This document shows positions 10,759-48,093 of a stretch of DNA of 64,000 nucleotides, in pieces; position 1 is the stretch's first letter, and every line of letters starts with the position of its first letter. The stretch is from Octopus vulgaris. Taxonomy: Eukaryota. The notes beneath the pieces are model-generated. The model was given only the letters and a program-made list of their open reading frames with translations. It had not been told where the DNA came from and ran no database searches. Position numbers and translations under genes: made by a program. The stretch is taken from contig OX597824.1 of NCBI GenBank assembly GCA_951406725.2, positions 36,828,001-36,892,000 on the forward strand, read 5' to 3'.

Positions 10759-10806
<48 letters not shown>

Positions 10807-10808
<2 letters not shown>

Positions 10809-11018
10809 TAATCCAAACATGAAAGCACAAAAAAACACAACACGAGGACGTGGAACAAATATAGTATTATTGGACGCTCAGGAAGGAAGGGAAGAAGGAG
10901 GGTTTAACGTTTCGAGCGGAGCTCTTCATCGGAAACATAGGAGAAAGAAAGATCCAGAGAAGGGAAGACAGCGGAAAAAAAAATCGCCAACGGTACACAG
11001 GTGGTCACATTTTGAATG

Positions 11019-11082
<64 letters not shown>

Positions 11083-11253
11083 TTTTCCTCCGTCTTCCGT
11101 TCTCTGGATCTTTCCTTTTCCTATGTTTCTGACGAAGAGCTCCGCTTGAAACGTTAAACCCCCCCTTTTTCCCTTCCTTCCTGAGCGTCCAATAATACTA
11201 TATTTGTTCCACGTCCTCGCGTTGTTGTGTTTTCTCTTTGTGTTTGGATTAAC
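10807..11253. mobile_element. Inverted pair of about 180-bp HHR-bearing units around a (TA)n tract
   Basis: 10807-10983 is the reverse complement of 11073-11253 (diverged), and each arm carries a hammerhead motif. Confidence 0.88.
11125..11159 (+). ncRNA. Minimal type I hammerhead ribozyme
   Basis: GTTT-CTGACGA-A-GAGC tcc GCTT-GAAA-CG-TT-AAAC. Stems I and II, intact core, palindromic stem III. The mirror copy at 10902-10936 (minus) has CCGATGA. Confidence 0.8.
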
Positions 11254-11469
11254 ATATATATATGTGTACATGTGTGCGTGCATGTGTGTTTGTGTGTGTA
11301 TGTGTATGTGTATGTGTTTGTGTATGTGTGTGTTCTCTAAGGAGGAGAGTCTCAGCTATTTTAACTTCTCCAGTTAGCTCACTCAGTGGCAATCTTCTTT
11401 GTGTAGTGGCATTGGATTATCTTTGATGCTTTGCAGCAACCATAATTAAAATCAGTAATCCAGATGACT

Positions 11470-33740: not shown

Positions 33741-34077
33741 TATATGAATAAATGAAAGAATGAAGTCGAACGAAGATGTTAACAAAATTCCTTTACTCTC
33801 GACACCTGTTTCGAAGACAGCATACTTTTATTCCGAAGGAATAAAGGGTGCATTATGCAATCTTCTCATCAGGAAAGATAAGGAGTCTCTCTCAGCCACA
33901 AGACAAACAAAAAATTTTGTGGCTGAGAGAGGCTCCTTATCTTTCCTGATGAGAAGATTGCATAATGCACCCTTTATTCCTTCGGAATAAAAGTATGCTG
34001 TCTTCAAAACAGGTGTCGAGAGTAAAGGAATTTTGTTAACATCTTCGTTCGACTCCATTCTTTCATTTATTCATATA
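33741..34077. mobile_element. Near-perfect foldback element (161-bp arms, 15-nt loop) made of two Penelope-type pseudo-LTR/HHR units
   Basis: 33741-33901 is the reverse complement of 33917-34077, with 3 mismatches seen. Confidence 0.95.
33796..33877 (-). ncRNA. Type I hammerhead ribozyme (left arm of foldback)
   Basis: CTTTC-CTGATGA-GAAGAT[..TTTATTCC ttc GGAATAAA..]GTCTTC-GAAA-CAGGTG-TC-GAGAG, intact core. The right-arm copy 33941-34022 (+) has GAAA changed to AAAA. Confidence 0.83.
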
Positions 34078-45372: not shown

Positions 45373-45844
45373 ATGTAAAGCGTTCATGCAGTTGAAATCC
45401 AGATGATCCAATCAATGAAATTATTTTATGAGGAGTATATAAACCATAAAAAGCCAGAAGATATGAGAGATGAACATATTAGACAGATATATGTCATGTG
45501 ATTAAATGTATTCATCTTTCACACCGTTTGGCTATTTATGGTTTATATGTACATGTGAAGGTGCCTGGCCTAGTGGTTAGAGTGTTATAGTCATGATCGA
45601 TAGATTGTGGGTTCAATTCCCAGTTTGGGCAGCACATTGTATTCTTGAGCAAAACACTTCATTTCATGTTGCTCCAGTCCACTCATCTGTAAATGGGTAA
45701 CCCTGCAATGTAATAGCCTCTCAATCAGGGGAAATGTTGGCCTGTTGGCTGGCATCATTCAAAGCACATGGTGACCAGTAATACATAACAACATCCAATA
45801 GTCTGGCTGATACCCTTATATATATATAAGGATTTTATCCTATA

Positions 45845-46240
45845 CTAGCAGTATCGCCCAGCGTTGCTCGGGTTTGTAAGGGAAATAACTATAAAGCATT
45901 TTTAGAGAGTTATAGCCAAAAAATAGCAAAAAAATGCATTAAAAATGGGAAAAAATGATGGTAAATTTTTTTTTAAATCGTTGATTCATCGTAGACATTT
46001 TTAGAGAGTTACTTCCCTTATATAATAGCGAAAAAATGCATTAAAATGAAAAAAAATGATGGTAAATTATTTTTAAAATCATAGACTCATCGTAGAAACG
46101 CGCTAATACCCAGAAGGGCTCGATATGAATCACGACTATAAGATACCCGGTTTTGGTTAAACTGCACCGCAAAATGTGGGAGTAGTTAGGAATCTAAATC
46201 GTAGGAGACAGACACACAACTTGACTTTTATATATAAAGA
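45845..46240 (-). mobile_element. Non-autonomous Helitron
   Basis: On minus: 5' TC(TTTATATATAAAAG), 3' hairpin CCCGAGCAACGCTGGG followed by CTAG, inserted between A and T. Contains an internal tandem duplication of about 110 bp. Confidence 0.82.
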
Positions 46241-46324
46241 TATATATATAAGGATTGTATCCTATATATGCTGTTCTATCAGTACTTATGCGTTGAAAAA
46301 ATATATCTTTCTACTTGTACTATA

Positions 46325-46834
46325 AGAAGTAATGTTTATTGACACTTTAACTTGGCTGTTTCATAGGAACCGATGTTACTACCATTTTAACCCCAGGAGG
46401 ACGCCTCCTCTAGCTGGTTATTCAATGCAATCTGCACCTGATATTATTGCAAGCAGGGAAGCGAACTCCTACAACTTTTCTGCAACGGGACCACCAGACT
46501 GTACAGTTTCGAGCTCTTTGTGCTCATCATCAGTGGTGGATAGTCATCTGCTAGAGATAGCAGTAAATCGCTCCAGCTTGCAATATATAGAAAATAAGGG
46601 ACAAGCAGTCACTGATTTTGTAACAAGCAAATTAGCTAATTAAAAAAATCTATATAAAAGTTGAAAACAGTAACTATACTGAGAATTAATGTTAATCACC
46701 AATTCAACATAGCTGTTCCATGGGAAGATTGCATCGAATAACCAGCTGGAGGAGGCGTCCGCCTGGGGTTAAAATGGAAGTTACGTTGGTTCCTACAGAA
46801 CAGCCATGTTAAATTGACGATAAACGTTACTTCT
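46325..46834. mobile_element. Inverted-repeat element (about 109-bp arms) enclosing a hammerhead ribozyme
   Basis: 46325-46433 is the reverse complement of 46726-46834 (diverged). Confidence 0.85.
46491..46539 (-). ncRNA. Type I hammerhead ribozyme (best-formed copy in the window)
   Basis: CCACCA-CTGATGA-T-GAGC acaaaga GCTC-GAAA-CTGTACAG-TC-TGGTGG. 6-bp stem I, 4-bp stem II, palindromic stem III, GUC site. Confidence 0.9.
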
Positions 46835-48042
46835 CAGAACTGCTTTCATTTCTAACAGAGATTTTCTAACTAGCTAATTTGCTAAACACTAAAATATGTA
46901 TACGTGTGTAGCGTCAGCACAGATCTGTGTGAGTGAGAAAACATCCACAAGAAATAATATATTAAATGCAATCATTTGTGAACTGAAGATTTATTCCGTT
47001 TCTCTGAGTCTCTTCGATATCGACGTCAGCAGCACGTTTGCTTTCAAATGATTAAATGAAGCCAATATAAGTATAAGGGAGATAACTCTGTTATAGTCCT
47101 TTTACGTAGTCCAGTAAACTGCTGAAATGGCTTCTGGGATAATCTGCGACGTTGTTGTTATTGTTTTAGCCCAGTTCAGCCCTTAGCCAGCTGACCATAG
47201 CATTCAGGAAATAATTTGAACAACTAGTTGTAATCTACAAATCTACAGTCATAGCTATATCCATGCCTCATCCATCTAGTTGATGACAACAATGATAGGA
47301 GTTGCAGTGTGACAAAAAGGCGTCTTTTTCCCTTCATTCTCCTTGTTCTATTTTTGTAAGTCTCTAGGTGTTGGTGGTGATGACACCAGTGGAGCGGGAG
47401 GCAATTAAGTTAATTAGTCAGGCTACAGAAGTGATTTCTTTTCTTCCTTTGTCACAATTAGCATGACTTTCTGTTAAAGCAGTTACTGATGCTGTTACTG
47501 TTATTTTTGTAGTGTTCAAGTTTTCTGTTTGTCTCAACAGAAACGGAGACTAACTTTCTTTATATAACTGCTTGATGATGTATTGCAGTGTATTATGAAG
47601 TACTGTGGGTATGTCTCTGTATTAATGGGAAGGAGGATGACTTGTCCATAGAGTGGCATGGGCCGTGAAGAGTAAAGCTTCCTGCAACAACAAACTATGT
47701 CCTCAGAAGATTGGTAAAACTGATTTCCTACATTTTATTATGATTAAATATGTCTACGAATTACTGGTGGAAAGTACCATTCTAAAGACACACTGGAGTA
47801 TACTGGGGTACACATCTAACAAAGATGTTCTTGCTAAGAAGCCAGTTTAAACTAAACAGTTAAGTTTGAAATACAATGGACCATCTAAATTTCTATGTTT
47901 TCTATCTTGGTTATATAAAACAGTAAGAAATGCAGAATAGTTTATAAACAATATCTTTAGACTTTTTTTTTGTTTTGCTTTTGAACAAAAACTACTTCAC
48001 ATTTCCTGATAATATATAGGAAAAAAATGTAAGGAAATTTAC

Positions 48043-48093
48043 CTGAGGAAATCGGCATTCTTCATCTAATATTTTTAATATGCATCGGGGTGC
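48043..48093 (-). CDS. Myosin motor domain exon
   Basis: cag|APRCILKILDEECRFPQ|gtaaat. 51 bp, phase 0/0, myosin ILxLLDEExxFP motif. Confidence 0.95.

Follow-up and report, generated by a model that had tools for sequence, protein, structure and literature searches.

The window analysed here, a stretch of 64,000 nucleotides from Octopus vulgaris (contig OX597824.1 of assembly GCA_951406725.2, positions 36,828,001 to 36,892,000), contains two exons of a myosin motor-domain gene on its minus strand. The intron between them carries a composite repeat insertion, which in turn harbors a candidate type I hammerhead ribozyme on the same strand as the gene (Table 1). The ribozyme starts 1503 nt past the donor that follows exon base 48043, in agreement with an earlier note on this DNA, which had described it as sense to the host gene and about 1.5 kb below that donor. 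Beside the element, at 45833-46244, lies a younger, very high-copy repeat (94% to locus L029, with very high contig depth) which has an internal 101-nt direct repeat and similar 27-nt ends.

Table 1. Features of the host intron, the insertion and the candidate ribozyme (window positions)
Feature	Positions	Strand	Remarks
Upstream host exon, 51 nt	48043-48093	minus	Ends LDEECRFPQ; myosin motor domain; AG/GT ends; frame continues into next exon
Host intron, 7009 nt	48042-41034	minus	
Downstream host exon, 80 aa	40794-41033	minus	Myosin VIIa/X best, E 3e-12; Myosin_head, E 1e-14
Whole insertion, two head-to-head segments	46319-46883		Both family-typical 3' ends outward; each segment 87% to consensus
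Main segment, 1.15 copies of the 359-nt monomer (partial tandem)	46319-46726	minus	Sole hammerhead of the copy; phase 130>183, 414 columns
Inverted 5'-truncated copy	46726-46883	plus	Phase 65>229, 165 columns
Arm 1, in main segment	46325-46433	minus	Monomer phases ~65-174
Arm 2, in inverted copy	46726-46834	plus	Identical phases
Approximate 'tail'	46838-46883	plus	~50-nt extension at one 3' end only
Type I hammerhead, minimal motif, 49 nt	46491-46539	minus	Candidate, identified from sequence
Helix I, 6 bp	46539-46534/46496-46491	minus	
Core CUGAUGA	46533-46527	minus	
Extra U between A9 and G10.1	46526	minus	Family-wide; PLE-hammerhead hallmark (PMC4209133)
Helix II, 4 bp, 7-nt loop	46525-46522/46514-46511	minus	
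GAAA	46510-46507	minus	
Helix III, palindromic octamer	46506-46499	minus	Pairs 46506-46504/46501-46499
GUC	46499-46497	minus	U16.1, then C17 (46497)
Predicted cut after C17	46497/46496	minus	Predicted from sequence alone
Distal helix I, 5' strand	46543-46547	minus	Past internal loop; damaged in window copy
Distal helix I, 3' strand	46485-46489	minus	

The motif combines CUGANGA, GAAA, a UH site and three helices with helix I open, the arrangement of a type I core, together with one extra U. Both the hammerhead with its GUC and the predicted cut lie where the earlier note had put them. Its description as textbook does not hold, however, given the extra U at 46526 and a helix III whose full pairing would require a 2-nt loop, leaving at best 3 bp and a tetraloop. 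Hammerheads of Penelope-type elements (PLEs) are marked by a G10.1-C11.1 pair, by a palindromic helix III and by an additional base inserted between positions 9 and 10.1 (PMC4209133), and the predicted ribozyme is of this PLE type rather than a textbook one. Likewise, the statement that it carries no disruptive change is right for the 49-nt minimal motif but not for distal helix I, where 2 of 5 pairs are broken and one is a wobble. Rfam models at their gathering scores gave no match anywhere in the 64-kb window, and a local search of the motif with Hammerhead_HH9 (RF02275) reached 20.3 bits (E 0.028) against a gathering score of 52.

The insertion is composed of two head-to-head segments of the same monomer. 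Its two arms, each 109 bp, are 86% identical, with 15 differences between them and 10/109 differences from the family consensus in each. The inverted copy ends some 60 nt before it would reach the ribozyme, and it is this truncation which creates the arms and leaves the ribozyme unpaired. The claim that the hammerhead sits between inverted arms and meets no antisense copy is thus borne out, and the layout of inverted arms with a spacer is, as far as its anatomy can be read, the by-product of a putative Penelope-type insertion. The spacer position is real without being special. It is the family default, since of the 31 ribozyme-bearing head-to-head loci 26 have no ribozyme in the inverted partner and 5 have one in both segments. 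With a single ribozyme, in place of the two consecutive intact ones expected of an active retrozyme copy, the window copy is unable to release a monomer or form a cis dimer. At window position 46838, organisms B, C and D carry 6 additional bases matching the family sequence, which points to a small deletion in the inverted segment in the window lineage.

The element belongs to a dispersed repeat family with a period of 359 nt. A first look returned 1024 candidates, of which 40 were scored to give 53 matches, the best non-self ones at 76-83%, and a 16-mer near the 3' end found 50 matches (control 0). A pattern for helix I and the core, run genome-wide, matched 48 places and none in the reversed control; it misses subfamily variants, and its counts are therefore lower bounds. 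A strict 35-letter pattern found only 4 places and was too narrow for a census. From the 4 of 55 pattern-independent copies that match the pattern (a hand count), a rough lower estimate of about 650 ribozyme-spanning copies is obtained, and the window element is one of hundreds of old copies. The available literature on hammerheads and ribozymes of octopus or cephalopods yielded no description of the family.

The anatomy of the family was mapped at 97 non-redundant loci, selected for carrying the ribozyme or its neighbourhood, onto a monomer numbered from the cut site; 96 of them gave 161 segments. The 3' ends concentrate in two windows, phases 165-185 (n=46) and 215-240 (n=52), with 63 elsewhere, so that 98 of 161 3' ends fall within these windows compared with 27 of 161 5' ends, the other 134 5' ends lying outside. 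Segments longer than one monomer number 45 of 161, two-ribozyme tandems occur at L006, L013 and L025, and monomers join head-to-tail directly with no ORF between them. Of 32 head-to-head junctions, 12 have one 3' end of each class. Fixed 3' ends with a tail, variable 5' truncation, partial tandems and an inverted 5' copy together make up the anatomy of PLE mobilisation: in the published PLE layout a partial tandem is joined at its 5' end by a truncated copy in inverted orientation, and one end bears a tail of 30-40 bp (PMC8557442), the tail being tied to two internal start sites of reverse transcription (PMC11167929). A DNA transposon of MITE-like or foldback type, bounded by terminal inverted repeats and carrying a captured ribozyme in its spacer, would account for 109-bp inverted arms near both insertion ends, but is extremely improbable. 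The arms consist of internal monomer sequence and vary in length, 5' junctions scatter, many loci show tandem overlap instead of inversion, and the outward ends differ by about 50 nt. Fixed terminal repeats were not found, the variable junctions contradicting them, and no target-site duplication was seen by eye at the window junctions.

The family also has the properties of a non-LTR retrozyme, with a non-coding monomer inside the 150-450 nt range, a type I hammerhead and both dispersed and tandem copies. The consensus circle is predicted to be strongly self-paired (z -7.6 over 60 shuffles, GC 45%), and the fold of the window monomer is eroded by comparison (z -3.1, GC 39%). Covariation was assessed in 47 of the 58 ribozyme-spanning copies, with most indel rows left out. 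Two-sided changes occur in 15 of 19 pairs, and 83.7% of cells are paired compared with 27-40% in slid controls. Two-sided cells number 68 against 32 in shuffles, a value reached in 0 of 500, although the copies are related and the shuffle count is not a probability. All helices covary, among them helix II (G-C in 25, C-G in 10 of 47) and distal helix I (column 8/66; A-U in 18, G-C in 15 of 47). Such covariation across copies indicates that selection acted on the fold in the source elements.

Two further features of the family were recorded. Loci L103 (894-1493), L101, L140 and L108 share, immediately 5' of the ribozyme at phase 297-309, an insert of some 575 nt flanked by a short direct repeat; its copies are 85-89% alike, and the longer variant has itself been amplified. 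In L010, L020, L027, L037, L039, L104, L109, L124 and L141 the family 3' end adjoins either one particular terminus of a second abundant repeat or runs of (TA)n, which suggests a target preference.

Taken together, the window insertion is very probably an old, decaying copy of this 359-nt hammerhead repeat, likely a non-autonomous retrozyme placed by PLE machinery, its ribozyme likely intact by chance. In the active family, the hammerhead would have cut tandem transcripts into monomers able to circularise. A PLE reverse transcriptase/GIY-YIG protein would then have initiated synthesis internally on the RNA, at either of two sites some 170 and 230 nt beyond the cut; copying would at times have exceeded one round, and an inverted 5'-truncated copy would often have been added. 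The window copy would have entered the myosin intron in sense orientation in an ancestor common to organisms A-D and have drifted from then on; it may still cut slowly upon transcription of the intron, likely with no selected effect.

A search for the autonomous partner of the family covered three kinds of evidence. The family profile found no convincing match among 30 of 148 GIY-YIG loci, with two weak matches in L083, and tblastn of a 781-aa PLE protein against 114 sequences returned two fragments (L052, L053) which are not clearly within insertions. Comparison of 89 upstream flanks as nucleotides revealed common neighbouring repeats and one insertion variant, with no ORF-like common 5' extension. 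No partner having been found among these, PLE mobilisation rests on the anatomy. The same results bear on a related explanation, in which the window copy derives, as a solo pseudo-LTR fragment, from an old autonomous PLE and not from an independent retrozyme. The PLE hallmarks of the ribozyme and of the ends fit this explanation, as do the PLE protein fragments near 2 of 114 sequences, but head-to-tail monomers with no intervening ORF do not, nor do the 89 flanks and the GIY-YIG loci, and it is considered quite unlikely. A PLE family with an open 781-aa RT and GIY-YIG frame is present at L095 (1745-4090) and L096, with many loci of identical scores. It has an upstream 359-aa open frame, a near-identical direct terminal repeat and a different hammerhead, and looks recently active.

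With regards to the preservation of the ribozyme, the earlier note had proposed that the arms drifted noticeably while the hammerhead did not, and that this copy was the best candidate for an active, possibly retained intronic ribozyme. Under domestication, selection would keep the hammerhead because splicing or transcript level is adjusted by its co-transcriptional cut in the myosin pre-mRNA, 1.5 kb inside the intron; a role of this kind has been proposed for amniote RECK-type intronic hammerheads (PMC6155905). The sense position in an intron agrees with this, and so does the state of the motif. Among the 48 pattern matches, 5 have a fully paired minimal motif and only 2, the window copy and L124, are Watson-Crick throughout. 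None of the 4 changes within the minimal motif alters its structure; two of them make up a compensatory pair in helix III, although this pair consists of two CpG transitions and U-A is found there in 6 of 47 rows, the window copy included.

The divergence figures do not bear out the contrast between arms and ribozyme. The 14% ascribed to the arms is their difference from each other; measured against the consensus, differences number 10/109 for either arm and 4/49 for the ribozyme (p=1.0). The comparison of the hammerhead with the rest of the element, proposed in the same note, likewise gave no difference (4/49 vs 39/307, p=0.48), and omission of CpG sites leaves 2/43 against 31/285, which is in the direction expected of domestication though p=0.28. 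In 57 other copies the ribozyme is conserved no better than the sequence on either side (0.171 against 0.130, and 0.147 against 0.122 when only the 33 closest are taken), the family-wide ribozyme divergence being inflated by subfamily variants and by the way copies were found; the core is kept in 15 of these and 1 is fully intact. Under simulated neutral decay at rates of 0.09-0.117, 4.7-1.8% of copies would stay intact and 1.0-0.3% all Watson-Crick. The latter is a low chance per copy, which favors selection, but among about 650 copies it amounts to 2-7 expected and 2 were observed. The number of intact copies therefore fits the neutral expectation. A scan for perfect motifs would select such a copy, the window copy having been noticed because it is intact, and its ribozyme is most likely intact by chance, free of constraint after insertion. 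What stands of the candidacy is a well-preserved sense motif that could cleave in vitro; the suggested retention does not, since the ribozyme diverges as the arms do and belongs to a high-copy retroelement. Moreover, distal helix I keeps all 5 pairs in 14 of the 48 copies and in 3 of the 4 other fully paired ones (L116, L124, L108 and L119), but is broken here. L116, L108 and L119, which keep it, are more promising than the window copy as candidates for an active ribozyme.

Comparison between species points in the same direction, with limited power. In organisms B, C and D, DNA contigs link the element with unique intron sequence, and the insertion therefore predates the split of organisms A-D, which would suit domestication, as would a second organism-A sample, in which 46445-46602 differs at 2 positions, one outside the ribozyme. 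Over the flanks, organism B diverges by about 2% (35/1717). A further contig of organism B covers 46445-46565 with 4 differences, at the depth of a single copy (46.6 vs 51.4); it ends before the unique flank and is, by identity and depth, likely the orthologue. Three of its differences can be placed, at 46511, 46487 and 46476. The first changes C11.1 to U, leaving a G-U wobble at a conserved pair, the second breaks the remaining G-C of distal helix I and the third lies outside the structure; those at 46511 and 46487 are derived relative to the family consensus. A G-U at G10.1-C11.1 brings a moderate loss of activity. At least 1 of 49 ribozyme positions (2.0%) is thus changed in organism B, equal to the flank rate, in one species and at a divergence where a neutral 49-mer would be unchanged 36% of the time. 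The earlier note had called for orthologues to be checked and had named equal divergence of hammerhead and flanks across species as the outcome that would tell against it; this one low-power comparison, with its change at the conserved C11.1, gives that outcome. A contig of organism D over 46415-46755 has 9 differences and 3 gap letters, no contig of organism C among those listed crosses the ribozyme, and run X11, guessed to be RNA, gave one paralogous contig.

Predicted folding is a further point against domestication, with helix I pairing at 0.50-0.53 in the window copy compared with 0.89-0.90 in the consensus. The literature available on splicing effects of intronic cleavage offered nothing usable, and the function of intronic ribozymes is described as unproven (PMC6765202). 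Conservation above the flanks is not observed, within the low power of organism B, and the RF02275 score is far below gathering. Domestication is accordingly judged very unlikely, and retention of the ribozyme by the host has the same low standing in our judgement. Were selection shown to keep the ribozyme, the locus would capture domestication at an early and seldom seen stage. It would then be the invertebrate equivalent of the intronic hammerheads of amniotes, with the parent element still recognisable. Present evidence points away from this.

As for catalysis, pieces of 61 and 91 nt showed no z-score signal when folded (-0.9, -0.2), and the active fold was not obtained. The consensus behaves alike, and for this reason the result is not used against the motif. 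In these predictions, limited to secondary structure with no tertiary contacts, the active fold is less stable than the ensemble by 4.6 kcal/mol for the window copy and by 3.7 kcal/mol for the consensus, the pairing probability of helix III is about 0, and the MFE structure pairs core bases with the 3' strand. The ribozyme could consequently be a catalytically dead relic, intact on paper yet incapable of cleavage as a monomer. This is a sub-case of the neutral-decay explanation, from which it differs solely in whether residual cutting persists. The short, palindromic helix III of dimer type, the predicted mispairing of the core, the single ribozyme of the copy and the presumed loss of the peripheral contact all lend themselves to it. 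Contacts between helices I and II are needed for efficient cleavage (PMC7229834). Such motifs cleave poorly as monomers (PMC4209133), and one PLE hammerhead was inactive unless protein was added (PMC11167929). On the other side, the consensus scores nearly as badly, so that the fold model does not discriminate, and most invertebrate retrozymes cleave efficiently as monomers, those of mussel at about 0.1 per min (PMC7229834). A dead relic is therefore possible but doubtful. Cleavage of the monomer in vitro at high Mg2+ is in our judgement somewhat probable, while fast cleavage in vivo is unlikely.

Among the known systems closest to the family are the animal non-LTR retrozymes, especially the 350-390-bp repeats of Mytilus, with which it has in common the type I hammerhead and tandem arrangement, a non-coding 359-nt monomer of GC 45%, a self-paired predicted circle and hundreds of dispersed copies (PMC7229834). 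Unlike the mussel retrozymes it mostly consists of 1-2 monomers with frequent inversions instead of long arrays, is 10-20% decayed, and no young copy was seen. Compared with the pseudo-LTR hammerheads of PLEs (PMC4209133, PMC8557442, PMC11167929), it is devoid of an RT/GIY-YIG ORF, its ribozyme is canonical rather than minimal (6-bp helix I and a distal helix), its tail is about 50-60 nt as opposed to 30-40 bp, and an autonomous partner was not found among the loci searched. Amniote RECK/HH9 (RF02275; PMC6155905) is alike in its type I fold, its sense position in an intron and the weak Rfam match. It differs in that the window ribozyme scores far below gathering, lies inside a recognisable high-copy element, has the extra U and a damaged distal helix, and shows no conservation above its flanks.

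Animal retrozymes have been argued in a preprint to be non-autonomous PLE derivatives (Li, Clavereau and Pollet 2026, 10.64898/2026.07.22.740005). That study covers 35 genomes, and its available text makes no mention of molluscs. It argues from distribution and phylogeny and the word 'tail' has no occurrence in that text, whereas the window family displays the PLE tail and inversion directly. The insertions, with preferred ends about 170 and about 230 nt past the cut, provide anatomical support for the proposed copying of animal retrozymes by PLE proteins from a start inside the RNA, giving the family modest value. The single locus is ordinary: animal genomes contain thousands of intronic copies of ribozyme-bearing retroelements. 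Between 42 and 44% of Xenopus copies overlap introns, which makes an intronic copy common (Li, Clavereau and Pollet 2026, 10.64898/2026.07.22.740005).

Other hammerhead-like sequences occur elsewhere in the window. At 10786-11271 lies an inverted repeat (78% self-match) of a different family, with a (TA)n centre and a minimal PLE-type hammerhead in each arm, the cores being at 11129 on the plus strand and, in mirror position, near 10900-10930 on the minus strand; these are likely paired PLE pseudo-LTR ends. Additional CUGANGA...GAAA candidates, some with a long helix II, at 33872 (-), 13882 (-), 11843 (+), 51477 (-) and 36787 (-), probably represent other PLE-type families or chance.
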